Position numbers and translations under genes: made by a program
The notes under the pieces: model-generated
What the model was told of the DNA's origin: nothing
The model's input: only the letters and a program-made list of their open reading frames with translations
Database searches by the model: none
In this document: positions 1 to 62,963 of the stretch, one piece after another
Numbering within the stretch: the first letter of the stretch is position 1
How the letters are laid out: every line of letters starts with the position of its first letter
Source of the DNA: Candidatus Bathyarchaeia archaeon
GTDB taxonomy: Archaea; Thermoproteota; Bathyarchaeia; Bathyarchaeales; Bathycorpusculaceae
Length of the DNA stretch: 64,000 nt
Reading direction: 5' to 3'
NCBI GenBank assembly: GCA_049521795.1
Contig: JBEKOM010000001.1
Location: 256,001-320,000 of the forward strand

Positions 1-18
1 TTATCTGAAATTCCAGTT

Positions 19-6173: not shown

Positions 6174-7928
6174 ATGACGGGTGAAAAGGCCCAGGATAAG
6201 TTCACGATCATCAACGAACTTGCACGGCGACGCGGCTTCTTCTGGCAATCGTACGAGATCTACGGCGGTGTAAGCGGCTTCGTAACATACGGTCCGTTGG
6301 GTGCAAGGCTGAAACAGAACATCGAGAAGAAACTGCGAGATCTTTTCGTGAACAAACTCGGAGTCTTGGAGATCGAATCACCTGTGATCACTCCAGCAGA
6401 GGTTTTCGAAGCCTCAGGTCACATCACTCACTTCAAAGAACCCCTCGTTGAATGCACTAAGTGTGGTAAGAGATTCCGAGCAGACCACTTGCTTGAGGAA
6501 TTTGTGAAGATGAGTGAGGCAGACGCTGAAAAGCTGAGTTTAACCGAGATCGACGAAGCGATCAGGAAGAACAAGATTAAGTGCCCAGACTGCGGGGGCA
6601 CGTTTGGCAAAGCAGAGACTTTCCTGACGATGTTCAAGACCACTATAGGTCCGTATTCAAAGGCTGTTGGTTACGGAAGACCCGAAGCGGCGCAGGGCAT
6701 ATTCGTAGAGTTCAATCGCCTGTACGGAATTGCGCGAGAAAAGCTTCCCTTCGGCGTCCTTCAGATAGGGCATGTCTTGAGAAACGAAATCTCACCTAGA
6801 CAGGGCATGATAAGAGTGAGAGAATTCACAATTGCAGACTTGGAATTTTTCTTCGACCCTGAAGAACCCGACTGCTATCTCTTGAAGGACGTTGAAGATG
6901 AAAAGCTTCGGATTCTTCTGGCAGAAACAAGACAGAACGGTTCAGAAGACATCACAGAAACCACGGTGGGAGACGCGTTGAAAAGAGGAATTATCAAGTC
7001 GGAGTGGCATGCAACCTTCATGGCATATGCCGAGAGACTCTTGGTCGAGCTTGGCGTTCCAGCGGAGAAACAAAGGTTCATCGAAAAGCTGCCGTATGAA
7101 AAGGCCCATTATGCGCGCCAAACCTTCGACCAGCAGGTTCTGGTGGAACGGTGGGGCTGGCTTGAAGTCTCTGGGCATGCTGACAGAACGGACTACGACC
7201 TCAGAAGTCACATGGAGCACAGCGGTCAGGACATGCAAGTTTTCAAGGAATACGAAAAGCCAGTTGAGACCGAACGCCTTGCAATAAAACCGATCATGGC
7301 TAAACTTGGGCCAAGCTTCAAAGGAGAAGCCGCAAGAGTTGCCGAAGAACTGAAAAAAGCCGATCCTCAAGAACTCGAAGCATCCCTGAAGACGAACGGC
7401 CACTACGTGCTTGGAAAATACAAGATCCTTCCTGAACACGTCGACGTTCAACGCGAAAAAATCGTAGAGCGCGGAAAACATTTCATCCCTCATGTCGTTG
7501 AACCCAGTTTTGGCTCAGACAGGCTCCTGTACGTGGCTCTTGAGTACGCCTATCAGGAGAAGGACGGCAGAGCGATGCTGAATTTCCCGCGCGACATTGC
7601 ACCTATTCAGGTCGGCGTCTACCCTCTCCTAAGCAAAGACAAACTGCCCCAGAAGGCTTTGGAAGTGCACAAGATGCTGATTGATGAAGGCTTCATAGCG
7701 GAGTATGATGAGGCAGGCTCTATTGGCAGACGATATGCCCGCGCAGACGAAGTTGGAGCACAGCTGGGCATAACGGTGGATTACGACACGCTGAATGATG
7801 ACACTGTTACGATCCGCGACCGTGACTCGTGGAAACAGGTTAGGACAAGTATTTCGGACCTGAAAACGCTTCTGCATGGATATTTCAGGGGAACGATCGA
7901 ATTTGACCAGTTAGGCAAACCCGTTTGA
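6174..7928 (+). CDS. glyS: Glycine--tRNA ligase (archaeal/eukaryotic type)
   Basis: RRRGFFWQSYEIYGG, RPEAAQG, RNEISPRQG, PHVVEPSFG, GSIGRRYARADEVG; GGAGG RBS. Confidence 0.96.
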   Translation: MTGEKAQDKFTIINELARRRGFFWQSYEIYGGVSGFVTYGPLGARLKQNIEKKLRDLFVNKLGVLEIESPVITPAEVFEASGHITHFKEPLVECTKCGKRFRADHLLEEFVKMSEADAEKLSLTEIDEAIRKNKIKCPDCGGTFGKAETFLTMFKTTIGPYSKAVGYGRPEAAQGIFVEFNRLYGIAREKLPFGVLQIGHVLRNEISPRQGMIRVREFTIADLEFFFDPEEPDCYLLKDVEDEKLRILLAETRQNGSEDITETTVGDALKRGIIKSEWHATFMAYAERLLVELGVPAEKQRFIEKLPYEKAHYARQTFDQQVLVERWGWLEVSGHADRTDYDLRSHMEHSGQDMQVFKEYEKPVETERLAIKPIMAKLGPSFKGEAARVAEELKKADPQELEASLKTNGHYVLGKYKILPEHVDVQREKIVERGKHFIPHVVEPSFGSDRLLYVALEYAYQEKDGRAMLNFPRDIAPIQVGVYPLLSKDKLPQKALEVHKMLIDEGFIAEYDEAGSIGRRYARADEVGAQLGITVDYDTLNDDTVTIRDRDSWKQVRTSISDLKTLLHGYFRGTIEFDQLGKPV

Positions 7929-30704: not shown

Positions 30705-32039
30705 CTACTTCATGTCAATGGGCAGGTTCTTTCCAAAGAATGGAAACTTCTTTCTGCGCCGCATCGTCTTAAGCATTCGGCGCATCATCACATACTGCTT
30801 CAGAAGCTCTTTTACCTCTTTTTCGTTGGTGCCTGAACCCTTTGCCACACGCTTCGTTCTCGAAGCATTAAAAATCTTTGGGTTATCCCTCTCCTCAGGC
30901 CTCATCGACTGAATCATGACGCGCCACTTTTCCAAACGCCCTTCAGCCATGTTAACCATGTCGTCAGGAATATTGTAAGACATTCCCGGAATCATCTTCA
31001 AAAGTTTCTTGAAGGTGCCCATGCCCTTCAAAGCTTCGAATTGTTCATACATGTCAGTCAACGTGAATTTGCCGCTCAGGATGGCCTTGGCCTTCTTATC
31101 TGGAACAGATATCTCCGCTTCACGCACTTTGTCCAGAAGGGTCTCTAAGTCGCCCATTCCCAAGAGTCTACCAACAAAACGGGAAGGCACAAAAGCCTCT
31201 ATGTCCTCGGTTTTTTCGCCGGTTCCGACGAATTTTATAGGGGCCCCTGTTGCAGCAACGGCGGAGAGAGCTCCTCCGCCCCTAGCAGACCCGTCCAGTT
31301 TAGTGACCATGATAGAGCCGATGGGCGTTGCCTCGTTGAAAGCCTTTGCCTGAGCTAATGCCTGCTGACCTATCGTTCCGTCGATCACAAGCATGACTTC
31401 ATCTGGCTTGATGCTCTTTTCAAGCATCTTCATCTCTTTGATCAGTTCTTGTTCCTCCTTGTGACGACCGGATGTGTCAACGATGATCACGTCCTTCTCG
31501 CCGAACAGCTTTAGGCCCTCATTCACCACTTTGATGGAATCCTTCGCCTTCACATCGCCGTACGAGGGCACGTTTATCCTGTTTGCGAGCTGTTGGAGCT
31601 GTGCAAAGGCCCCAGGCCGAAAAGTGTCCCCGCAGACAAGAGCTGGCTTCAGCCCCCTCTTCTGAAAATATCTCGCAAGCTTGGCCGCCGCGGTTGTTTT
31701 CCCTGAACCTTGAATGCCCACGAGCATCACTAATTTTCTTTTTCCAGGCTCAACCTTCAGCGGCACCGGCTTATCGCCTAGGAAGCGCGTCAACTCTTCA
31801 TAGACAACTTTTATGACGTGTTCGCGTCTAGAAATGCCTGGAGGAACCTTTTCCTTCAAAGCCCTTTCTTCTATTCGTTTAGAGATGCCAAGTACAAGCT
31901 GAACGTTCACGTCAGCCTGAAGCAGTGCTCTCTGGATGTCTCGAACAAGCTCTTTAACGGTAGCTTCATCCACGACCGAAGCTCTGAACACTTTCTTGAG
32001 AGCGTCATAAAGTGAGGAGCCCAGGCGTTCCAGAGACAT
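30705..32039 (-). CDS. srp54: Signal recognition particle protein SRP54
   Basis: GIQGSGKTT, DTSGRH, TKLDGSARGGGALS, M-domain RVAKGSG. Confidence 0.96.
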   Translation of the reverse strand: MSLERLGSSLYDALKKVFRASVVDEATVKELVRDIQRALLQADVNVQLVLGISKRIEERALKEKVPPGISRREHVIKVVYEELTRFLGDKPVPLKVEPGKRKLVMLVGIQGSGKTTAAAKLARYFQKRGLKPALVCGDTFRPGAFAQLQQLANRINVPSYGDVKAKDSIKVVNEGLKLFGEKDVIIVDTSGRHKEEQELIKEMKMLEKSIKPDEVMLVIDGTIGQQALAQAKAFNEATPIGSIMVTKLDGSARGGGALSAVAATGAPIKFVGTGEKTEDIEAFVPSRFVGRLLGMGDLETLLDKVREAEISVPDKKAKAILSGKFTLTDMYEQFEALKGMGTFKKLLKMIPGMSYNIPDDMVNMAEGRLEKWRVMIQSMRPEERDNPKIFNASRTKRVAKGSGTNEKEVKELLKQYVMMRRMLKTMRRRKKFPFFGKNLPIDMK

Positions 32040-52234: not shown

Positions 52235-53068
52235 ATGAAGGAGAGGTTCAAGGTTGCTCTTGCACAGATTAGCTGCAAACCGGCAGACAAGGAACAGAAC
52301 CTGAAGAAGATCAAAACAACCGTCACCAGAGCCAAGGAGAAAGGAGCAGACCTCGTGATATTGCCAGAACTCTCGCTCACAGGCTACGTCGTGAGAGACC
52401 AGATCTATGAATTGGCTGAGGAGATCCCTGGACCATCAACAAGAACCATACAGAGAATTGCGAGGGACGCAGGCATGCACGTCATTTTTGGGATGCCTGA
52501 AAAGAGCAAAATGGCGCAGGCTACCCTTCACAACACCGCAGTACTTGTAGGTCCCAAGGGCTTAATTGGCAAGTACCGTAAGATGTACCTCCCAACTCAC
52601 AGCGTCTTCGAAGAAAAAAGGTACTTTCGCCCAGGCTACGAGACCGGTGTCTTCGACACTGACCTTGGAAAGATAGGTTTGCTCATATGCTACGACATAT
52701 ACTTCCCAGAGGTCACTCGGCTCGCGCGCCTCGCAGGAGCCCAATTGACCGTGTGCATCTCAGCTTCACCTGCGGTTCGTCGATCATTCTTTGAGATACT
52801 CACTGCTGCGCGCGCAGTCGAGAACACGACCTTTCTGGCCTTTGTGAACCTCGTTGGAGTCGAGGACGGCTTGCAGTTCTGGGGCGGCAGCAGGCTGGTT
52901 GGCCCTAACGGGAGAGTCCTCGCCCAAGCCAAGTACGACGAGGAAGATTTTGTTATTAGCGAGGTGGACTACGCCGACATACGACCCCTTGAAGCCTTCA
53001 TCCCCACGTTGAAAGATCTGCGTCCAGAGCTGTTTGACAAGCTAAAGGCACGCGCAGAAGAATTGTAG
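52235..53068 (+). CDS. Carbon-nitrogen hydrolase (nitrilase family); possible glutaminase partner of NadE
   Basis: Glu-Lys-Cys triad: LPELSLTGY, YRKMYLP, LICYD. Confidence 0.88.
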   Translation: MKERFKVALAQISCKPADKEQNLKKIKTTVTRAKEKGADLVILPELSLTGYVVRDQIYELAEEIPGPSTRTIQRIARDAGMHVIFGMPEKSKMAQATLHNTAVLVGPKGLIGKYRKMYLPTHSVFEEKRYFRPGYETGVFDTDLGKIGLLICYDIYFPEVTRLARLAGAQLTVCISASPAVRRSFFEILTAARAVENTTFLAFVNLVGVEDGLQFWGGSRLVGPNGRVLAQAKYDEEDFVISEVDYADIRPLEAFIPTLKDLRPELFDKLKARAEEL

Positions 53069-53143
53069 ATCCAAGAAAAAACTCAACCGCCAAGATCCGT
53101 TTACCAATTCGTCGAAAGCTGCGAAACAACCAAGTTGATAATG

Positions 53144-53307
53144 TCACAAACCATCGTCCTGGCACCTCATCAGAAATCACAACCACGTCACGCTCAACTG
53201 TGATCCTCTTGAAATGATGGCGTCTTTGCAAGGAAGAAATCAGGCAAACGGGTTGTTTGGAAATGGTGGCTAATCACACGTGACTCACGTGTGACGGCTG
53301 GCATCAC
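53144..53307. repeat. TCAC/GTGA box cluster 1 including a 21-bp palindrome
   Basis: 9 TCAC/GTGA in 164 bp; TCACACGTGA-C-TCACGTGTGA at 53274..53294. Confidence 0.7.
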
Positions 53308-53874
53308 ATAATGAACAACATGTTTGAAGATCAGTATACCATCAAAAGAGATGCTGGCTGTTTTGCGGCCAATAGAAACGGGTCTATACACAACGAGCCC
53401 AAAATCGGGGAGCAATATTACAGTGGCCAACTTCGCGAAACGGCCAAAACAGGGACACTTTCGCCCTCGCACGTCGCAGTTCAGACCACACCTGAGTAAG
53501 TCACCGCCCCGATATGTTCCTCACGCTAGAACCTCCTAAAACTCAGCCATCCTTCCCTTGTTGCTCCCCATCGAGCCCCAAAACATCCCCAGAGAGCAGA
53601 CATCGGCCTTTCCGCAGGCGCGGGTAAACTCGCTTTCGCATTCCTCGGGCTAAAACAGAAAAACGGCACTGCACACAAAGCTTCAGTCGTTTGCGCCTCC
53701 AGAATTGGTCAGAACCAGAAACCGCTCGCTCTCTCTAATTATCTGCCAATTTCCTGGCATATGCTTCTCCTGTCCCCCGAACTCAAATCGCGCCGCATTG
53801 GAATGCGATACTTTTAAGAGCTGGGTCCGTATACAAAACCGTATCCATTCAAACCATCTCAGGGGCGATGATAT

Positions 53875-54354
53875 TTGAAGCTGAGAGACAGCGTCCAATC
53901 GATGCTAGTAAGCTCAATTAACGACCCTATTGCCAAAATCATGGCCGACAACAGCCATTTAACAAAAACTCAGCTTGAAACGCTCCTCATAGACATATTG
54001 TCCGACAATATCTCAGACAAAGCGCTGAAGTACGACGAAAAGGCCCGATTAAGGCTAACCAAGGCCAAAATCAGTCGTGGAGCGTTCAACCGGACTCTAA
54101 AGCAGGCCAAGGAAAATGTCACAAAATCAGTCTACACTGTAATACTGCTAGGGTACTTGGGACTCTTCGAAACCACAACTCTTGACCCATATCTTGAGGT
54201 CGCAAACCAACTGCACACGTATTTGGATGCATACAAGAACGCGGTCAGCGAAGGTACAAGCATCAGTGAGCGCCTGAAAATCATAGGTTTGCTCCGCCAA
54301 CAGCTCGAAACAAGCCTAAAAGAACTCTCCAGTCGTCCGACCAGGCCAATGTGA
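53875..54354 (+). CDS. Hypothetical protein with helix-turn-helix-like segment
   Basis: 159 aa; SHLTKTQLETL...ISRGAFNRTLKQAKENV pattern; natural amino-acid composition. Confidence 0.7.
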   Translation: MKLRDSVQSMLVSSINDPIAKIMADNSHLTKTQLETLLIDILSDNISDKALKYDEKARLRLTKAKISRGAFNRTLKQAKENVTKSVYTVILLGYLGLFETTTLDPYLEVANQLHTYLDAYKNAVSEGTSISERLKIIGLLRQQLETSLKELSSRPTRPM

Positions 54355-54642
54355 CATCACAAATCACGCCCCAAAATACGGTACTTGTACCCTGCAACCA
54401 CAGCTGTTAGCAGAAGCCCAATTCACATCGCAAATCGTGATAAGAACCCAAGGCAGCCATCTTTCCCGGAACATGTTAATGAGGCGCTAGATGCATCGGT
54501 TATACTTAAAAGTGTGATGTGTGACATCATGCCTGCTCGTCACCATGGTACGCACCATAAGTCTTAAATGCTGCATGGGCGAGATGTGATGTGTGATGCA
54601 ACGTGTTCGAGTCACGTATAATCACGTTTGAATCACAGGTGA
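54351..54642. repeat. TCAC/GTGA box cluster 2
   Basis: 14 TCAC/GTGA in about 290 bp; TGTGATGTGTGA twice (54513, 54585); TGTGACATCACA at 54350. Confidence 0.7.
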
Positions 54643-54649
54643 ATTTCTA

Positions 54650-55363
54650 TTGGATTATCTATTGTTTATCCTCGTGAGTTGTCTTCTTGCAGCGACCGCC
54701 GTCTCGGCGCTGGAATACTACCGTAGGTTGCGTCAGGCCAAAGGGGAATACGAAGAAGCACGAGGAGCGGTCGAGGACATTGTTTTGAGTTTCAACAGGC
54801 AGTTCAGGCGCGAAGACGAGAAACTAGAGGCGGTTGCTTACAAAGTTGAGGCTGTGGATTCGAAAAGCGACAGAGTAGTCAACAAGATGGGAGATATGGA
54901 AAAGAGGTTGAACACGGCGGAGGCAAAGGTCGGTGCCGACTCTGAAGGCAGTGAGAGATTGGCAGTTCGACTGGCTGAGGTTGAAAACAAAACCCGTGAT
55001 ATGATAGCATCACAAGAAGCAGTCACAGCAAGAATTGTGGACTTGGAACAGCGAGCTAGGCAATTCTCAGCCTTCCCTGAAGCTAGCCTTGAAGCGGCGA
55101 TACCGATAAGGAGAGACAAGGCGTTGGCACAGTTGACTGCTACAGAGGTTGCAGTGTTGGAGCTCCTGGCATCAGAGGGGTCAAAGACCGCGCCACAGAT
55201 AAAGGAAAAAGTCAGACTTAGCAGAGAACACACGGCAAGGTTGATGAAGAAGCTCTACGAAGAGGGGTACTTGGACAGGGAAACCATCAAGATCCCGTTT
55301 AAGTACAGCGCCAAGAAGGAGATAGAGAAACTTCTCGGGAAACCGCAGGATCAAGCTGCCTAA
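54650..55363 (+). CDS. Membrane anchor + coiled coil + C-terminal winged-helix protein
   Basis: N-terminal YLLFILVSCLLAATAVSAL; heptad-rich middle; LTATEVAVLELL..KTAPQIKEKVRLSREHTARLMKKLYEEGYLDR; AGGTGA RBS. Confidence 0.8.
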   Translation: MDYLLFILVSCLLAATAVSALEYYRRLRQAKGEYEEARGAVEDIVLSFNRQFRREDEKLEAVAYKVEAVDSKSDRVVNKMGDMEKRLNTAEAKVGADSEGSERLAVRLAEVENKTRDMIASQEAVTARIVDLEQRARQFSAFPEASLEAAIPIRRDKALAQLTATEVAVLELLASEGSKTAPQIKEKVRLSREHTARLMKKLYEEGYLDRETIKIPFKYSAKKEIEKLLGKPQDQAA

Positions 55364-55403
55364 TCTGCCTGCCTCGAATGAAAGCTCGCGGCTGCGAGAA
55401 GGC

Positions 55404-55850
55404 TCACTGTTTCACTGTAATGTCCGTTACTTTCGCAGCGACTTGGGCCACACTTGTCGCCACTTTGTACCTCAAGCTGTTGGATGGCCCGGCTCTTAAT
55501 AGGAGCTTCTTTCCTGCCATCCTCGCGAGGTACGTTGCTACAGTACTCAGGCCTATTGGCTCTCTAAACTCCTGTTCGAAAATAGTTTGCACCTCTCTGG
55601 AGGAGAACCAAACCAAAGTGAAGTGTTTTTGAACTGTTGCTCTGACCTTGTCATACTTTGACGGTTCTCTAGCTAAAGTGGAATTTGAACCTGGATTTCC
55701 ACCATCCCCGGGGACCCCACCAAGGAGTTCCACCAGGTCGAGCAACCGCACCGCCTTATCGCGTGTGACCTGCCCTTCAAAGCTTATTGAGTAACGATTG
55801 CCCTCGCTGTCGAAAAGTTCGACGCGCATTTTTCTGGCTGGCATTGGCAT
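55404..55850 (-). CDS. Two-domain protein: small N-terminal beta/alpha domain, G/P linker, C-terminal winged helix
   Basis: KMRVELFDSEGNRYSISFEG..., WFSSREVQTIFEQEFREPIGLSTVATYLARM; divergent from oriC/cdc6. Confidence 0.75.
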   Translation of the reverse strand: MPMPARKMRVELFDSEGNRYSISFEGQVTRDKAVRLLDLVELLGGVPGDGGNPGSNSTLAREPSKYDKVRATVQKHFTLVWFSSREVQTIFEQEFREPIGLSTVATYLARMAGKKLLLRAGPSNSLRYKVATSVAQVAAKVTDITVKQ

Positions 55851-56043
55851 GTACACCTGGCGGCTGCGTTCACAATTTCACAGTTCACAAGCTATAGGTG
55901 TTACGGTGAACACTGTGCTGCAAAAGGGAAACAAAACAGCCTCTAAATCAATAAAGCAGCTATATTTCCAGCCTTATTGAGATTGCGCGGGTAACAGGTT
56001 TTCAGAAAGTCAAAATGAGAATAGACTCGGTACGAAACGCGTT

Positions 56044-56620
56044 TTCCAGTGGAAGAGCAGGGGTGAGCTATTCACAGAAAAGAAGCATAGATGACTCAAT
56101 TGGAGGAAATAGGCGGATGTGGAAACGACATTGGTAGGTAAACTTCACAAGGATTTCACGGAAAGTGAACGAAAAAATGGACGAGTGCGCGCCGCTACGG
56201 GTGGAAGGTTTCAGTGGAGTGGAGTTTAGAGGTGTTAAATAAGCAAAAGGTTCCAATTGGCAGTCTACACCGCAAGCAGTATGTAGAAAAGAAGTCACAC
56301 CCCTTCATTTCCATTGGAAAGGGTGTAAGTCTAGTATTGTCTGTAAGCAAGTTTGAAATGTTTTTTAGTAAATGTCTAAAATTCTAGCTGAAAGTAAATA
56401 TAACGTCATTTACCAATTACATAGAGGAGTACAAGTTTTTCTAAGTATAATTAGCATTTCTTCAACTCAAAGAGTGAACACTTCCATCAGAAGCTGGGGG
56501 GTGTGCCTGTTCATGTTGGAGGGTATTTAGTGTTAAAGGTGTGCTTCTTCTTTAGAATTCTTGTGCTTAGTATTTAAATTTCTGTATGGTAGGGCTTATG
56601 TTTTCCACAGGAAGAACGCT
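56044..56620. other. Chromosomal replication origin (oriC): ORB elements flanking an AT-rich DNA-unwinding region
   Basis: ORBs TTCCAGTGGAAGAGCAGGGGT (56044, +), TTTCCAATGGAAATGAAGGGGTGT (56297..56320, -), TTCCATCAGAAGCTGGGGGGTGT (56482, +); AT-rich 56330..56470; directly upstream of cdc6. Confidence 0.88.
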
Positions 56621-56650
56621 TGTTACTACTGGACTCTGTGAGTTGATGGA

Positions 56651-57901
56651 ATGAGTAATGCTGATATTCTTGATGAACTCTTCGAGAACTTCGCGAGCAA
56701 CACCACAGTTTTTAGGGATCGAGAGGTACTGCGACATGATTATCTTCCAGACAGGCTGCCTCATCGTGAAGGGCAGATCAGGCAGTTGGGGGAAATTGTT
56801 GCTCCCTTGCTTAAAGGTGCAAGAAGCTCCAACATTTTTATCTATGGCAATACAGGAACCGGGAAAACCGCTGTGGTCAAGTATGTACTAACTCGTCTTG
56901 AGTTTAAGGCTAAAGAATTCAACGCACCTGTTAAGATATGCTACGTCAACTGTAGGCTAGCCGGATCCGAGTACAGGGTCTTCGCAAGTATGTGCCAGAG
57001 TTTAGGTGTTCAGGTTCCATTCACAGGGTTATCCGTCGGTGAAGTCTATGATAGGTTCACTGCAGGTTTGGACCTTTCGGGCACGATTTTCTTGGTGGTC
57101 TTGGATGAAGCCGATGCGTTGACAAAGATGCGCGGGGACACTTTTCTGTATGAGTTGACTAGAATGAACGAGGTTTTGAGGCACAGCAAAATAGCCCTTG
57201 TTGGGATATCTAACGATCTGCGCTTCAAAGAGTTTCTGGATCCTCGTGTCCTAAGCTCACTGAGCGAGGAGGAGATTGTTTTCAGGCCCTACGATGCAGG
57301 TGAGTTGAGAAACATACTCGCTGAACGGGCCCAGGCAGCCTTCACTGAGAAATCATTGTCCGATGCCGCGCTTGGCCTTTGTGCTGCTCTTGCTGCAGCA
57401 GAGCATGGGGATGCGCGTCGAGCTTTGGACCTTTTGCGTGTTGCCGGCGAGGTAGCTGAACGAAAAGGGTTAACCGTGGTGTCTGAAGAGCATGTTCGCG
57501 AGGCTGAGAAGCATATTGAGCACAACCGTGTTGTTGAAGCTTTGAGCAACCTGCCGTTGCACTCGAAGCTTGTGACATTGAGCATCTATCACTTGGGCAA
57601 AAGAGACGCTCGGGGCGCCATTACGGGTGAGATCTCTGAGGTCTACGAGGAGCTGAGCGGGGAGTTGGGAGTTGCGCCGCTGACTCAGCGGCGTCTGAGC
57701 ACGTTGATAAATGAACTGGACGCGATGGGACTGTTGAACGCTAGGGTCGTTAGCATGGGAAGGTACGGGCGAACGAAGAAGATACGGCTTGAGATCGGGC
57801 GCAGCCTTATTCGAGACGTGTTTGCTGAGGATAGTAGGCTTAGCCGCCTAGTTAATTACGAAGTGCAGTGCATTTCGAAGCGCGCTGATGGCAGAAACTA
57901 A
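56651..57901 (+). CDS. cdc6: Orc1/Cdc6 replication initiator
   Basis: LPHRE, YGNTGTGKT, VLDEAD, LDPRVLSSL, GDARRALDLLR, GRYGRT. Confidence 0.96.
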   Translation: MSNADILDELFENFASNTTVFRDREVLRHDYLPDRLPHREGQIRQLGEIVAPLLKGARSSNIFIYGNTGTGKTAVVKYVLTRLEFKAKEFNAPVKICYVNCRLAGSEYRVFASMCQSLGVQVPFTGLSVGEVYDRFTAGLDLSGTIFLVVLDEADALTKMRGDTFLYELTRMNEVLRHSKIALVGISNDLRFKEFLDPRVLSSLSEEEIVFRPYDAGELRNILAERAQAAFTEKSLSDAALGLCAALAAAEHGDARRALDLLRVAGEVAERKGLTVVSEEHVREAEKHIEHNRVVEALSNLPLHSKLVTLSIYHLGKRDARGAITGEISEVYEELSGELGVAPLTQRRLSTLINELDAMGLLNARVVSMGRYGRTKKIRLEIGRSLIRDVFAEDSRLSRLVNYEVQCISKRADGRN

Positions 57902-57954: not shown

Positions 57955-59520
57955 TCAGTCGAACGGAATGACGGTGACCTCTAGGGTCTGAAGATTAACC
58001 ACTGGAACCATCGCGGGTGTCGGAACAAAGCCGTTCCTGCGCATGTAATCGGTCTGCCTTTGCCAGCAGCCTGAGTTTACGATCAACACTCCACGATAGT
58101 TACCGTATTCTAGTGCGTGCACGTGGCCAGCATGGAAGATGTCTGGGACGTGGTCGATAACGAGGAAGTCTTTGCTCTCCGGCGACAGAGGTGTCTTGCC
58201 GCCATAAAGTGGTGCTAGGTGTCGGGTCTGAAGCAGCAGTTGCATTGCTTTTTCGGGGTGGCTGTGGCTCATGCCTGGGACGGTGGAGATTATGTCGTCG
58301 AGGCTGCGGCCGTGGAACATGAGCACTTCTACTCCGTGGAGGCTTAGTGTGCACGGGCTGCCTAGAGATTGGACCCTTCTCGATTCTTGAAGCGTCTCTA
58401 GGAAGGAGTGGGAGATTGCTGGCTGCGGTAGCGCTTTTCGAGGAGCATCGTGGTTTCCTGGCGTGATTATGACTTCCACGTAGTCGGGGATTTGCTCTAT
58501 GTACTTTGAGGCAAACTTGTACTGTTTGTTCACGTCTCTTATTGCGAGTTCTTTTGCTTGGTTGGGGTAGACGCCGATTCCGTCGACGATGTCCCCTGCG
58601 ATTAGCACGTATTTGACGTGGCCTGCTATGTCCTTCAATCTGGCGTCGCCGTATTTTCCGTTCAGCCAGAGCATGAAGCGGTTTAACGCTTCTTTCGTGA
58701 ACTGTCTGCTGCCAACGTGCATGTCTGATGTGAGCACTGCGTAGACTGGCGCTGTTGCTTTGTGCTGAATTCTCTGGGCAACGTCTGGCAGGATTATGTC
58801 TTCGGCGACGAGCAGGCTGCTTCTGGTCTTGACGACGGTGAGGCAGATGACTTGGTCGAGCAGGAGCATTCGCGCCTTTTTCTGCAGGTCTGGGTGAGCG
58901 TTCTGTGTTACGAGAACGATGGCGCTTGCCTTGAGGTCCTCAACGGTTAGCACCGTTTTCTGTTTGGACTCTCTCTTCTCTGTGACCATGGCTATTATCT
59001 TGAGTCGCGTGTTTGATGGGGCCTTCACTGCGTCCATGACCGAGGCTGCGCTCTTGACGTCCATCCTTTGTCTCAGCAGCTTCTCTAGCTGTTTGAACCT
59101 ATCTTGAAAGTAGCCCAGGTAATCTTCGATCGTCCCGGCTGAGCTTATTTTTGAGCCTGGGTCTTCCATCACTTTCATTTCGGCTTCAACACCTTTCGAG
59201 TATGGGCGGAAGGGCACTTTGGCTTCAGTTAACTGCGGAACCTGAACCTCCATAGTTTGTGGGAGATGTTCTTCTGATGGTTGGGCGACGTTTCCCTCTG
59301 CTCCTTCCGGCGGTTTGAGTAACTCTTCCAAGAAGCACCGCTCTATGAAGAAGGGTTTCTCCTCAAGGTTTTCGATCTGCTGGATTGCTTTGGCCATGAT
59401 TTTCGCTGGGTCCTCGGTTGTGGCTACTAAGCTTAGGAATTCGAAGGCTTCTTTGTTCAGCTGGTAACCTGCAGCGATAGTGAGTTCTACGGCTCTCTGG
59501 AGTTTTTCCGCCTCGCTCAT
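57955..59520 (-). CDS. polB: DNA polymerase D small subunit DP1
   Basis: SDMHVGS, GDIVDGIGVYPNQ, PGNHD, HGRS, RHLAP, GHVH, NSGCWQ. Confidence 0.95.
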   Translation of the reverse strand: MSEAEKLQRAVELTIAAGYQLNKEAFEFLSLVATTEDPAKIMAKAIQQIENLEEKPFFIERCFLEELLKPPEGAEGNVAQPSEEHLPQTMEVQVPQLTEAKVPFRPYSKGVEAEMKVMEDPGSKISSAGTIEDYLGYFQDRFKQLEKLLRQRMDVKSAASVMDAVKAPSNTRLKIIAMVTEKRESKQKTVLTVEDLKASAIVLVTQNAHPDLQKKARMLLLDQVICLTVVKTRSSLLVAEDIILPDVAQRIQHKATAPVYAVLTSDMHVGSRQFTKEALNRFMLWLNGKYGDARLKDIAGHVKYVLIAGDIVDGIGVYPNQAKELAIRDVNKQYKFASKYIEQIPDYVEVIITPGNHDAPRKALPQPAISHSFLETLQESRRVQSLGSPCTLSLHGVEVLMFHGRSLDDIISTVPGMSHSHPEKAMQLLLQTRHLAPLYGGKTPLSPESKDFLVIDHVPDIFHAGHVHALEYGNYRGVLIVNSGCWQRQTDYMRRNGFVPTPAMVPVVNLQTLEVTVIPFD

Positions 59521-60048: not shown

Positions 60049-61047
60049 ATGGGGTTGGAACAGATGAGTGATTTGCGCAGGGTTCAACGAACGCCCGGGG
60101 GCACCTTCTTCGTTTGTTTGCCTAAGGCTTGGGCTGAACGAAACGGTTTGCAGCGTGGAGCGATTGTGGGCATCAGTGAGGCTCCAGACGGCAAGCTTAT
60201 CGTCGACGCGAGGTACGGTGCGGAGCCCTCGCCCAGAACTGCGATTTTGGAGCCTGGGCCTCACTTGGGCCGTGAAATCATAGGTAAATACCTTCTTGGC
60301 TTTGACGTTGTGCGGGTTGAGGGGAGGGAACGCATAGGCTTTGAGGTTCGGGAGGCTGTGAAAAGCACTGTTAGCCACTTGGTTGGTTTGGAGATTGTTG
60401 AAGAAGATCATTCTGGGATTGTTCTGCAGTGTTTGTTGGAGCCCTCCGGTTTCCCTCCTGAAAAGATTCTGCGGCGGGCGTACGCAATAGCCGCGGGGAT
60501 GCACCATGACGTGGTCAACGCCTTCGTTGACGGAGACGCGCAATTGGCGAAGAGTGTTATGGCCCGCGACGATGAGGGAAACAGACTGTACTTCCTTCTT
60601 GTCCGCATTTTGCGCACGATAATTCAGAACCCGAGCCTGAGTGAGAAGCTGGGTGTGGGCCCCATTGAGTGCCTCGACTACCGCTTGGCCGCCAGCCTGG
60701 TTGAAGCCATCGGAGACGAGTGCGTTCGAGCGGCGCAGAAGACCGTTGAGCTAGAAGGTCTAAAACTCGGTAGAAACCTCGGAAAATTGTTCATGGGCCT
60801 TCAGGCGGTTTGCTTCGAGGCTCATGAAGAAGCCTTGAACGCTTTTCTCGCTGGCAACATGAACTTGGCCGAAAAGGTGCGTAGCACGCGGGACAAGGTT
60901 GAGAAGGAGTTCGCAAACATCGAGGAGCTGGCTCAGGCACAGTCGCTTGACGTTGTGCCTCAGATCCTCGCGGTGGCTTCTTTTTTGAGGCAGATATACG
61001 AACACAGCGTCGATATATCTGACTTAGCGGTTCCCAAGAAACCTTGA
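60049..61047 (+). CDS. phoU: Phosphate uptake regulator PhoU with N-terminal AbrB-like domain
   Basis: RRVQRTPGGTFFVCLPKAWA, YLLGFD, GLEIVEE, RDDE..RLYFL, two PhoU repeats. Confidence 0.88.
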   Translation: MGLEQMSDLRRVQRTPGGTFFVCLPKAWAERNGLQRGAIVGISEAPDGKLIVDARYGAEPSPRTAILEPGPHLGREIIGKYLLGFDVVRVEGRERIGFEVREAVKSTVSHLVGLEIVEEDHSGIVLQCLLEPSGFPPEKILRRAYAIAAGMHHDVVNAFVDGDAQLAKSVMARDDEGNRLYFLLVRILRTIIQNPSLSEKLGVGPIECLDYRLAASLVEAIGDECVRAAQKTVELEGLKLGRNLGKLFMGLQAVCFEAHEEALNAFLAGNMNLAEKVRSTRDKVEKEFANIEELAQAQSLDVVPQILAVASFLRQIYEHSVDISDLAVPKKP

Positions 61048-61061
61048 TGATGTTGCTCCCT

Positions 61062-62285
61062 TCAAGGGGGAAGCGATTCTACTCTCTGCGGTGCTTTGGC
61101 CAGAGAAACATGTTCACCCTGCCTCAACTCGATGATGTACTGCACTTCTCCTCTTATGTTACAGTAAGATTCCACCGTGATGTTCTCACCGTAAACGTTC
61201 TCTGCGCTCGCCCCAGTTCTCAGCAGAACGTGTTTTCCGTGGAGGTCTTCTACTTCAGCACCTTTGCCGACGACGATTTCATCTGCCCTTATAGGCCCAT
61301 GAACCTTGCCTCTGCTTCCTATCTCAACAGAGCGTGCTGCAACACCTTCACCAGTGTTTATCGAACCTCCGACTTCCACATCTTCGGTGGCTGTAGCCTT
61401 CCGCGCACGCAAGGCCCCACCAACTTCAATGCTTCTTGTACTGACCTCTCCACTTACGTCTACTCTTCCCCCGACCTCTAATGATTCGGAAAGCTTGAGA
61501 GATCCATCGATGTCCACTGTGCCCCCGACCTCCATTCCTGTGCCTTGGGCCAGGCCCTTGATCTCTATTGTACCGCCAACCTCAACCCCTTCGAACTCCA
61601 GATCACCTTCAACTCTCAGCGTTCCCCCGACCTCAATGTGCCCGCCCTTGCTCTTGCCGGCGAGATGCACTGTGCCGCCTACGTCTACGTCTTCGAATTC
61701 CAAGGAGGCCGTTGACTTGAAGGTACCGCCAACGTCTATCTGAAGAATTCTTCCGCCTGCAACTGTTGCCGCTCCTCCAACATCTAGACTCTCTATGTTG
61801 ACTTTAGATTCGATTAGGAGGCTTCCTCCGACTTCCACATTGCGTGCAGTGACCTCGCCTTTTGCTGCGAGAGTCCCGCCGACTTCTATGGCCTTGGCTT
61901 TAGTATTTCCTCCAACCTCCAGGCTTCCTCCCACATCCACCTCTTCTACCATGAAATCCTTGCTTACGTATACCGCGTGGTCTACATCAACATTCTTTGC
62001 GGTCATCTTCCCGTAGACTGCGAGGCGACCGTCCTCAACTTCAACGTCTTTGTCTATCTCCAAGTCACCCTGAACCGTCACGGAATCCTCAGCTTCAAGC
62101 TCTTGGGCGGACAAACTGCAATCAAAGGTGTTATGGCCTTCACAGTAGACTGTTCCATAGACCTTGACTCTCGGCGGGCTTCCTGCACCCTTGACAGTCA
62201 CGTGCTCGCCAATTTCTAGATCGCCATTTACAATATCCAGTGTCACCGTCGTACCTGATGGAATAGAAACTCTGCCACTGTTCAT
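61062..62285 (-). CDS. Long beta-helical repeat protein (bactofilin/polymer-forming cytoskeletal-like)
   Basis: 13 (D/E)VGG motifs at about 17-aa spacing; acidic; no signal peptide; ends IRGEVQY. Confidence 0.7.
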   Translation of the reverse strand: MNSGRVSIPSGTTVTLDIVNGDLEIGEHVTVKGAGSPPRVKVYGTVYCEGHNTFDCSLSAQELEAEDSVTVQGDLEIDKDVEVEDGRLAVYGKMTAKNVDVDHAVYVSKDFMVEEVDVGGSLEVGGNTKAKAIEVGGTLAAKGEVTARNVEVGGSLLIESKVNIESLDVGGAATVAGGRILQIDVGGTFKSTASLEFEDVDVGGTVHLAGKSKGGHIEVGGTLRVEGDLEFEGVEVGGTIEIKGLAQGTGMEVGGTVDIDGSLKLSESLEVGGRVDVSGEVSTRSIEVGGALRARKATATEDVEVGGSINTGEGVAARSVEIGSRGKVHGPIRADEIVVGKGAEVEDLHGKHVLLRTGASAENVYGENITVESYCNIRGEVQYIIELRQGEHVSLAKAPQRVESLPP

Positions 62286-62687: not shown

Positions 62688-62963
62688 CTACTGTTCCAGC
62701 GCAGCGAAGAATTTGCGCATGCGCTTGTACGTCTCCAGATATTCCAACCCCCACTTCGTCGCCCGGTACTTCTTCGAATCCTCTAGGTTAACTTCACTGA
62801 TGAAACCGTGAGCGACCAGAAAGTTGAGCTCCTTCTTAGCTCGGTCAACAGGCATGTTGGCTCCATAGGAGACCCGTGTCAGCGAGCACAACCCCTTCCG
62901 AGCAACCGTCTCTATGATGTCTGCGTAGATGTCGTATTTTGTCCTTCTGCGTTCGTCAGACAA
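62688..62963 (-). CDS. Archaeal winged-helix protein (HTH_45-like)
   Basis: RRTKYDIYADII, TRVSYGANM, YRATKWGLEYL. Confidence 0.8.
   Translation of the reverse strand: MSDERRRTKYDIYADIIETVARKGLCSLTRVSYGANMPVDRAKKELNFLVAHGFISEVNLEDSKKYRATKWGLEYLETYKRMRKFFAALEQ

Follow-up and report, generated by a model that had tools for sequence, protein, structure and literature searches.

The replication origin (oriC) of a peat archaeon of the Bathyarchaeia is flanked by three genes, here termed g1, g2 and g3, that appear from sequence comparison to form an old, vertically inherited cassette of three small DNA-binding proteins dedicated to this one place in the genome. The locus lies in a 64,000-nucleotide stretch of contig JBEKOM010000001.1. 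This whole stretch is termed the window, and coordinates are those of the window; the genome (G000) comprises 2,439,145 bp. The names borne by homologous proteins put the organism in Bathyarchaeia. The cassette genes and origin elements are as follows.

53875-54354, plus strand: g1, 159 amino acids, TTG start
54650-55363, plus strand: g2, 237 amino acids
55404-55844, minus strand: g3, 146 amino acids, divergent from cdc6
56043-56064, plus strand: origin recognition box 1 (ORB1), TTTCCAGTGGAAGAGCAGGGGT, conserved in a 21-genome alignment
56297-56321, minus strand (inverted): ORB2
56340-56480: AT-rich DNA unwinding element (DUE), 70-78% A+T
56481-56503, plus strand: ORB3
56603-56616: mini-ORB-like sequence TTTCCACAGGAAGA, upstream of cdc6
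56651-57901, plus strand: orc1/cdc6 initiator gene

The spacer between g3 and cdc6 is ∼800 bp in length. Inverted ORBs, displaying the TCCAGTGGAA dyad and a G-string, flank the AT-rich DUE beside orc1/cdc6, and the cumulative GC skew of the window has its minimum near 54 kb. By its sequence the spacer is a canonical archaeal oriC with three ORBs, and g1-g3 represent its left flank. An initial annotation of this DNA had placed the trio immediately left of oriC-cdc6, and with the ORBs, the DUE and cdc6 located this placement stands. Its descriptions of the gene products are also borne out: a helical protein of 159 amino acids (g1), a protein with a transmembrane segment, coiled coil and winged helix-turn-helix (wHTH) (g2), and a two-domain wHTH protein encoded on the minus strand (g3).

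Short TCAC/GTGA boxes are crowded at two sites near the genes, nine in 53144-53307 (164 bp, termed cluster A) and 14 in 54351-54642 (292 bp, the g1-g2 spacer). The genome mean of 7.25 boxes per kb predicts about 1.2 and 2.1. A recount thus reproduces exactly the originally reported numbers (nine in 164 bp, 14 in about 290 bp, and three copies of TTCACA at 55869-55889), and the roughly one and two boxes then expected agree with the genome mean. When 200-bp windows are slid along the whole genome, only four reach at least nine TCAC/GTGA, and two of these are the clusters described here: ten boxes at 54498-54697, the densest, and nine at 53112-53311, the joint second. The longer forms are more restricted still. 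RTCACR is found at least six times per 300 bp only at 54333-54632 (11) and 53004-53303 (eight), and TTCACA/TGTGAA at least four times per 300 bp only at 55845-56144 (five). The genome-wide density check put forward with the initial annotation therefore does not count against it, as the clusters are not equally common elsewhere.

The boxes are not all of one type. A or G precedes TCAC (RTCAC = GTGAY) in 7/9 boxes of cluster A and 12/14 boxes of the g1-g2 spacer; T precedes it (TTCAC) in 9/12 boxes of the g3-cdc6 spacer. On sequence grounds the TCAC boxes represent two distinct motif families, and a separate g1 element adds a third. Clusters of these three motifs are absent from the rest of the genome. 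Around each core promoter stands a motif of its own: GTATAC-N6-GTAT at g1, GTGAY/RTCAC palindromes at g2, and TTCACA (TTMAC in other lineages) at g3. In place of the single iterated, centromere-like site that had been envisaged, there are thus two private families, or three with that of g1, each around one core promoter. Because each family wraps the core promoter of one gene, the layout is that of putative autoregulatory operators. Extra copies are found outside the promoters, namely the cluster A array and TTCAC/GTGAA boxes, which lie within 2-6 bp of both ORB1 and ORB3 and also in the interval between ORB1 and ORB2.

A third 200-bp window with nine TCAC/GTGA, at 6348-6547, looks like coding sequence; it lacks the RTCACR or palindromic form and falls below the thresholds for the motif clusters. 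This window, and the shortness of the word TCAC, are what can be said for the view that the arrays arise by chance or from base composition. Their genome-wide ranking and their site-for-site conservation, both in 21 genomes and across classes at 32-62% G+C, speak against it. An RNA element, the related proposal, is not consistent with the mixed orientation of the boxes or with palindromes devoid of loops, and a search of 52500-57000 against Rfam (E up to 1) gave no match. Both proposals are already refuted, with hardly any probability left to them. ARAGORN detects no tRNA in the 64-kb window.

The most elaborate array is that of g2, in the spacer between g1 and g2.

54351-54367: site I, GTGACATCACAAATCAC, palindrome GTGAYRTCAC plus a third half-site; overlaps the g1 stop codon
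54514-54529: site II, GTGATGTGTGACATCA, the 17-bp element of site I inverted (TGTGAynTGTGAyrTCAT); 35 bp upstream of the g2 TATA
54554-54569, plus strand: g2 core promoter, ACCATAAGTC-TTAAAT, resembling a TFB-recognition element (BRE) and TATA box; conserved in 21 genomes
54586-54642: site III, GTGATGTGTGATGCAAC, and site IV, just before the g2 start codon

Site III lies 17 bp downstream of the g2 TATA box, and the usual archaeal TATA-to-start spacing puts the expected transcription start of g2 at this site. Site IV consists of TCAC-N6-TCAC-N7-TCAC followed by GTGA, with 10-11-bp phasing, and precedes a GGTGA/GGAGG word and the start codon. When the spacer is aligned in the 21 genomes (G000 and 20 relatives), the conserved columns are almost only those of sites I-IV and the BRE/TATA; the consensus forms are GTGAYRTCACAAATCAC for site I, ACCATAAnnnTTAAAT for the BRE/TATA-like element and TGTGATnTGTGATGCAAC for site III. 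The composite GTGA-N3-GTGA-N2-TCA is present three times in the genome, twice in this spacer, and the triple-TCAC pattern of site IV occurs once. Box density in the spacer is 24.5-46.2 per kb in 21/21 genomes, compared with 7.0-12.9 per kb over the loci. Since only 0-2 nt separate the halves of the palindromes, these are predicted to be sites for dimeric proteins on duplex DNA rather than RNA hairpins.

The g2 protein has a predicted hydrophobic anchor at residues 3-24 (the 19-residue Kyte-Doolittle mean is 2.35 at residue 3, and the next best is 1.06), followed by a basic YYRRLR. The middle portion of about 130 residues is probably a coiled coil, to judge from weak coiled-coil-type matches, and a MarR/TrmB-type wHTH is found near the C-terminus (residues 162-222 of 237). 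The Pfam score for MarR (PF01047) is 29.3 bits with a cut-off of 24.6, and that for TrmB (PF01978) is 25.2 bits with a cut-off of 25.6. The wHTH helix SREHTARLMKKLY is near-invariant across classes. The anchor is also conserved across classes, and there is no extracellular sensor part. Thus g2 combines in one protein a predicted DNA-binding domain and a predicted membrane element, as expected of a membrane-anchored origin tether, and the membrane anchor that had been described on the wHTH protein is supported, as a hydrophobic N-terminus kept across classes.

The second RTCAC array is a satellite further upstream.

53144-53307: cluster A, nine TCAC/GTGA boxes, with the inverted repeat TCACACGTGA-C-TCACGTGTGA

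Cluster A is situated ∼570 bp from g1, as an extra array 1.3 kb upstream. From its sequence, a class I/II aminotransferase gene on the minus strand has decayed here to a fragment of the ...VISDEV... region. In G000 a stretch of 41 codons with one stop still resembles this region (E 0.18). Relatives with a 1.3-kb gap at this position carry an intact minus-strand aminotransferase gene in 6/6 gaps examined, Pfam-confirmed in one. In seven relatives the boxes (aTCACacGTGAyt...GTGAyaaGTGAcgTCAC) reside inside the aminotransferase reading frame, where they code for ...DVTSLITKKSRVII...NNPTG. In relatives devoid of the gene, the boxes persist in non-coding DNA in 9/9, and the intervening sequence can no longer be aligned. 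Three paralogous aminotransferase genes elsewhere in G000 have zero, four and two scattered boxes at the equivalent codons and no array. The genus of the peat archaeon holds both states, with the gene in G003, G005 and G008 and without it in G000-G002 and G009; since both occur within one genus, the gene was probably lost repeatedly and the boxes retained. The sequence comparison argues for selection acting on the DNA of cluster A itself, such that the boxes outlived the gene. The relic offers a clean natural example of putative protein-docking sites that lie in a coding sequence and outlive the gene. A 62-amino-acid frame directly after cluster A (53311-53499) was considered as a small gene and rejected, since G002 does not retain it. 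A second instance of boxes within a reading frame is seen in three ammonia-oxidiser loci (L081-L083), where several GTGAT boxes lie inside the 3′ part of the g1 coding sequence, as GAT GTG ATA codons.

The promoter of g1 differs from those of g2 and g3.

53812-53849, plus strand: g1 promoter, with TATA-like TTTTAAGA at 53812-53819, then GTATAC-AAAACC-GTATCC at 53829-53846

The proximal promoter has no TCAC boxes. The initial claim that boxes lie upstream of each gene thus holds for g2 and g3 and fails for g1, whose nearest array is cluster A and whose promoter element is of a different kind. This private element, GTATAC-N6-GTAT, is represented by CGTATACAAAAyyGTATCCATT in 21/21 genomes shown, and GTATACRAAANNGTAT has one occurrence in the genome. 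The scan for the g1 element also revealed a near-identical word, GTATATACAAAACGTATA, in three copies in G000 (C1:57873, C1:647315 and C8:24665).

The structural model of g1 (predicted local distance difference test, pLDDT, 83.6) is all-helical, with a C-terminal helical hairpin at residues 99-159. The protein belongs to no Pfam family, its profile has no match among PDB sequences at E up to 10, and Foldseek detects no PDB structure at E up to 0.001; weak rows for TFIIB/cyclin folds are seen at E 0.6-3. Matches found with VIA-align are dominated by the C-terminal hairpin, at a Z of about 8 that is ordinary for helical models. Residues 17-89 align with an RpoE sigma-4 chain (Z 5.3, root-mean-square deviation 3.0, 61 residues aligned), and 14% of the members of an ESM Atlas row at 0.78 carry PF04545. 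The conserved ISRGAFNRTLKQAKENV in the N-terminal domain is probably an HTH, which serves as a lead only. The start codon of g1 is TTG in 14/21 genomes, ATG in four and GTG in three; the protein most conserved among the three thus has a weak start codon that is itself conserved. In the closest complete relative (G001:C1:1460080-1460557, L037) the g1 match is in two overlapping pieces, residues 1-105 and 96-159, which represent a frameshift or a sequencing error in a gene that is strongly conserved otherwise.

The third motif family extends from the g3 promoter into the origin.

55869-55911: g3 promoter, TTCACA x3 at 55869-55889, TATA-like CTATAG at 55892-55897 and inverted GTGAA at 55906-55910
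56071-56076, plus strand: TTCACA box, 6 bp after the G-string of ORB1; conserved
56144-56169: box triple TTCACAagg-N3-TTCAC-N5-GTGAA between ORB1 and ORB2; conserved
56474-56478: GTGAA, 2 bp before ORB3

The conserved start MPARKMRV of g3 gives a protein of 146 amino acids, and the frame is open to 55856. Upstream of it the 21-genome alignment displays the conserved string TGTTCACAAnTTyACAnTTCACAAGTTATAG...GGTGAA. On the g3 strand the TATA-like element is preceded by one box, and three more are placed between this element and the start codon. An AlphaFold2 model of the protein (pLDDT 71.8, from a 20-row alignment) shows a beta-beta-alpha unit at residues 5-41, a disordered linker and a C-terminal BlaI/Fur-like wHTH at residues 63-128. 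Foldseek returns only generic wHTH repressors (Fur, MecI/BlaI and PadR, E about 0.01), and the g3 profile has three weak matches among PDB sequences. Penicillinase_R (PF03965) is matched below its cut-off by 18/20 g3 orthologues (best E 4.2e-5), and by g3 of G000 at 16.6 bits where 22.6 are needed. Membership in the BlaI/MecI/CopY family was rejected on this score and on architecture: the wHTH is C-terminal and the extra domain N-terminal, opposite to the family layout. A predicted complex of Cdc6 and g3 scored 0.00 (mark 0.32) and speaks neither for nor against binding.

The boxes near the ORBs raise a further alternative, that TTCACA/TTAAC is part of an extended origin read by Orc1/Cdc6 or by a second paralogue, and that g3 merely shares the spacer. 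A second Orc1/Cdc6 paralogue does exist (G000:C6:91924-93048, 29% identity), and the boxes adjoin the ORBs, at a distance of 2-6 bp for ORB1 and ORB3 here and immediately 5′ of the tandem ORBs in ammonia oxidisers. In addition, g3 and this type of Orc1 go together: when five Bathyarchaeia genomes without g3 were tested, the best Cdc6 match was at the level of the paralogue (160-195 bits) in four, and there was none in the fifth. This alternative nevertheless does not account for the inverted box pair around the g3 TATA, which is 150-200 bp from the nearest ORB and is found across many families, nor for the boxes between ORB1 and ORB2, which form pairs and triples of their own. It also leaves unexplained the RTCAC arrays 1.5-3 kb away, and is considered improbable.

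Conservation of the block was followed at three levels. The two outer neighbours of the locus enter the comparison.

52235-53068, plus strand: carbon-nitrogen hydrolase (nitrilase) gene; an 806-bp gap follows, up to g1
57955-59520, minus strand: gene for the small subunit of PolD, which travels with cdc6 in the conserved block

At the level of the order, 41 related genomes were searched, and 20 loci were fetched. Searches with single proteins detect g2 in 34 of the 41, g1 in 36 and g3 in 35, almost always once, and a cdc6 orthologue in most. The order g1-g2-g3(-)-oriC-cdc6 is kept in 20/20 fetched relatives, and the hydrolase gene is also syntenic, in 19/21 genomes. At the class level the g3 profile matches 73/121 genomes, once in each. 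Twenty loci from 16 families were compared: in 15 of them g3 and cdc6 diverge from a spacer of 456-1162 bp, in two g3 is 3.3 kb from cdc6, in two it is rearranged within ∼5 kb, and one has no cdc6 within 6 kb. By tblastn g1 is found in 16/20 of these loci and g2 in 12/20. In the loci that have g1 and g2 side by side, g2 is again preceded by GTGAYRTCAC arrays, and in most Bathyarchaeia families TTCAC...GTGAA brackets the g3 TATA box.

At the phylum level the g1 profile matches 89/201 genomes, and cdc6 is present in nine of 18 distant loci. Among these nine are all five fetched AmoA-positive (ammonia-oxidiser) complete genomes, which are of one family and have polD-cdc6-oriC-g3-g2 intact; g1 is detected by tblastn in 3/5. 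Their loci (L079-L083) span 32-62% G+C. The five g3-cdc6 spacers contain 14-16 TTMAC boxes each, or 26-35 per kb compared with 1.0-4.4 per kb in the remainder of each locus. GTTAAC is present two to five times in each spacer; in the rest of the locus it is found zero times in four loci and three times in one. The densest GTGAT/ATCAC window (9-12 per 300 bp, where the mean is about 1) is in or near the g1-g2 region in 5/5, and a related YATAC-N6-7-GTATAGC element is found just before the g1 start in 5/5. Because the motifs are conserved together with the block across classes, the three motif families are as old as the block itself. The synteny check proposed initially thus links the trio to oriC-cdc6(-polD) in 20/20 relatives, 15/20 class-level loci and 5/5 AmoA-positive genomes, and does not count against the initial annotation. 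TTAAC/GTTAAC replaces TTCAC at equivalent positions in some Bathyarchaeia families, at L072 (G059) and L073 (G097), and in the ammonia-oxidiser loci L079-L083. One of the latter, L080, has TTCAC beside the ORBs and GTTAAC at the g3 promoter.

In 7/20 relatives an insert of 2.6-2.7 kb between g2 and g3 carries, on the g3 strand, genes for a HerA-type ATPase (DUF87, 519 amino acids) and a protein of 351 amino acids. The latter has no Pfam match and is presumably NurA-like. The insert lies at 3054-5637 of L049 (G018) and in the g2-g3 gaps of G012, G016, G020, G026, G030 and G040; G011 has a fused remnant. The pair was not found at the G000 locus, where the only genome match is a 26%-identical HerA on C15, nor in the 20 class-level or the 18 phylum-level loci, and it was therefore rejected as part of the cassette core.

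The insert bears on the proposal that the locus is a true partition system, in which the arrays are centromere-like sites, g2 and g3 their binders, and an unlinked motor ATPase segregates origins. Iterated origin-proximal sites, site-specific binders (predicted) and a membrane anchor fit such a system, ParA/MinD-type genes are present elsewhere in the genome, and the HerA gene with its neighbour could be added in the relatives that carry them. No ParA/SegA-type gene is linked, however. A search of the whole genome with PF13614 and PF01656 gave nothing above cut-off in the window, in agreement with the initial annotation, and the nearest match is about 190 kb or more away on C1; a sub-threshold CbiA match is found at 31383-31709. 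No ParB-family Pfam match was detected for g1-g3 at E up to 0.1-1, and for SegB there was no model to search. The arrays are also few and overlap promoters, and the HerA pair is not core. Partition in this strict sense is thus rated very improbable.

The organisation described is consistent with a different proposal, that g1-g3 are autoregulated, origin-dedicated binders. Each protein would bind its own motif as a dimer, repress its own promoter and keep its own level steady, on the model of archaeal repressors whose sites are at or behind the TATA box. The N-terminal anchor of g2 would sit in the membrane and the long coiled coil would reach the DNA, such that origin-flanking DNA is held at the membrane. 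The g3 protein would bind beside Orc1/Cdc6 at the ORBs and modulate origin recognition or firing. Because the sites cluster nowhere else, the work of these proteins would have to be at this locus. The assignment of proteins to motifs is only inferred, from position, from the precedent of the TrmB family and from parallel conservation. The chances of this proposal, with g2 holding the flanking DNA and g3 acting beside Orc1, are put at about even. What survives of the initial interpretation is the origin linkage, the genome-unique arrays conserved site for site, and the anchor; the single centromere-like array does not, and no partition ATPase is linked.

Several points weigh against the origin-dedicated proposal. 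The assignment of proteins to motifs is positional, and binding, tethering and segregation are all predicted from sequence. The g1 HTH is a lead only (Z 5.3 to sigma-4, Atlas row at 0.78, no Pfam or PDB sequence match). The recognition helix of g3 (LSTVSTYLSRL) displays no clean change where the box shifts from TTCAC to TTAAC. The genomes compared are kin and not independent, which makes the separate retentions fewer than the synteny counts suggest. The link of g3 to the origin-type Orc1 may simply reflect shared ancestry. Lastly, the oapABC genes of haloarchaea are a conserved origin-adjacent cluster, yet OapA is a vesicle-forming GTPase, as far as the available parts of these reports state (PMC7002104, PMC10927574). 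Because of this precedent, adjacency to an origin alone proves little.

The oapABC precedent, of an origin-adjacent cluster whose known function is elsewhere, also favours the plainest alternative, that g1-g3 are ordinary auto- or cross-regulated transcription factors, that their position at oriC stems from a frozen accident or from gene dosage, and that replication, tethering and segregation do not involve them. Each of the motif families covers a core promoter, at positions typical of repressor sites, and the synteny of the nitrilase gene (19/21) indicates that the whole neighbourhood may simply be stable. On the other hand, there is nothing to control for a regulator whose only clustered sites are those at its own promoter. 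In Bathyarchaeia as well as in ammonia oxidisers, TTMAC boxes are found beside and between ORBs, away from promoters. The upstream RTCAC array persists within coding sequence and after gene loss, far from any start, and the membrane anchor of g2 is conserved in a protein without an extracellular sensor part. Such purely local control is unlikely, but it is a serious contender.

The proposal of an origin-dedicated cassette can be taken further. In its strongest form the cassette is an origin-organising system that predates the split between Bathyarchaeia and ammonia-oxidising Nitrososphaeria; g2 would be an archaeal first, a protein that pins the DNA flanking an origin to the cell membrane, g3 a dedicated Orc1-side factor on the ORBs that gates initiation, and g1 a third origin-dedicated binder, with private operators fixing the levels of all three. 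This extended form is tentative and somewhat doubtful. The sequence data, in which one arrangement is kept from Bathyarchaeia to ammonia oxidisers, suggest an undescribed origin-organising device. Origin organisation, regulation and segregation are largely unknown in archaea beyond Sulfolobales and haloarchaea, and the cassette supplies concrete candidates in the form of three proteins and three short motifs. The block is found beside oriC in ammonia oxidisers, a group with cultured members, which makes the idea testable at the bench.

Other genes right of the origin were noted. A 407-amino-acid protein (61062-62285, minus strand), 4.5 kb right of the origin, has three bactofilin-domain stretches (PF04519, E 5e-11); bactofilins are a polymer-forming cytoskeletal family, found here in an archaeon near oriC. 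A protein of 332 amino acids (60049-61047, plus strand) beside PolD combines an AbrB/MazE-type N-terminal domain with two PhoU domains, and a stand-alone HTH_45 winged-helix protein of 91 amino acids is encoded at 62688-62963 (minus strand, E 1e-14).

No paper dealing with the origins of Bathyarchaeia or with the g1-g3 cassette turned up in literature searches; the primary paper on thaumarchaeal origin mapping was outside their coverage, and one mapped thaumarchaeal origin is cited in the portion available of a review (PMC4010727). By sequence and architecture the cassette joins none of the nearest families, namely oapABC, UBP/ucm, RicO-type anchors and TrmB.

The available account of oapABC describes a conserved three-gene cluster divergent from orc1/cdc6 across oriC in haloarchaea (PMC7002104). 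The products are a small GTPase (OapA, identical to ArvA), a DUF2073 protein and a DUF2072 zinc ribbon, and their known role, in the part of the literature at hand, is vesicle formation (PMC10927574). The conserved three-gene layout and the divergence from orc1 across oriC are shared with g1-g3. The proteins are unrelated (HTH, transmembrane-coiled-coil-wHTH and wHTH here), the three Oap families were not found in Pfam scans of g1, g2 and g3, and private arrays are not mentioned for oapABC in the sections available.

UBP is a non-initiator protein that binds the ucm motif inside Sulfolobus origins and is needed for origin function; it is described, in the text as accessible, as a beta-rich saddle of 111 amino acids, found only in Sulfolobales and Desulfurococcales and bound at over 300 genomic sites (PMC12141716). 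Its authors ask whether other lineages have analogues or origin-bound accessory proteins (PMC12141716). The cassette resembles UBP/ucm in pairing a sequence-specific (here predicted) non-initiator protein with a short conserved origin motif, and differs in that the proteins are of the wHTH/HTH type, are encoded beside the origin and have motifs clustered only there. In sequence comparison, the g1 profile had no PDB match and none of the three weak PDB matches of g3 is UBP. Identity of the g1 element (GTATACAAAAC) with ucm (ATTATACAAAC, as given in the methods of PMC12141716) was considered and set aside: the overlap is eight bases, the g1 element is in a promoter and not in an unwinding region, and there is no UBP relative.

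TrmBL1 and Tgr of the TrmB family bind TATCAC-N5-GTGATA before the BRE/TATA or at +1 and are autoregulated, according to the portion of the report available (PMC4158304). The g2 protein and its sites are similar in the wHTH, in the ATCAC/GTGAT half-sites and in having palindromes upstream of the BRE/TATA or at +1. In contrast, g2 has its wHTH at the C-terminus, lacks a sugar-binding effector domain and carries a membrane anchor and coiled coil. The half-sites abut (GTGAYRTCAC), with no N5 spacer as in the glycolytic motif of Thermococcales, and there is no regulon. By architecture g2 was rejected as a TrmB member: the family has an N-terminal wHTH and a C-terminal effector, and the wHTH of g2 is at residues 162-222. 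With SegAB and ParABS the cassette shares iterated sites beside presumed binder genes near an origin, but it has no linked Walker ATPase.

In Bacillus subtilis, RacA with ram and Noc with NBS are anchors between origin and membrane. In Staphylococcus aureus, RicO, acting at ricS, bridges origin DNA to the membrane by means of a site-specific DNA-binding domain and a membrane element, as stated in the part of the report available (10.64898/2026.03.06.710092). The g2 protein is predicted to have the same two components, a DNA-binding domain and a membrane-binding element. There is no homology, and an amphipathic helix is replaced in g2 by a coiled-coil spacer and an integral anchor at the N-terminus. 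Its sites also differ from those of RicO-type anchors: they form two arrays within 1.5 kb, and they wrap the promoter of g2 itself.

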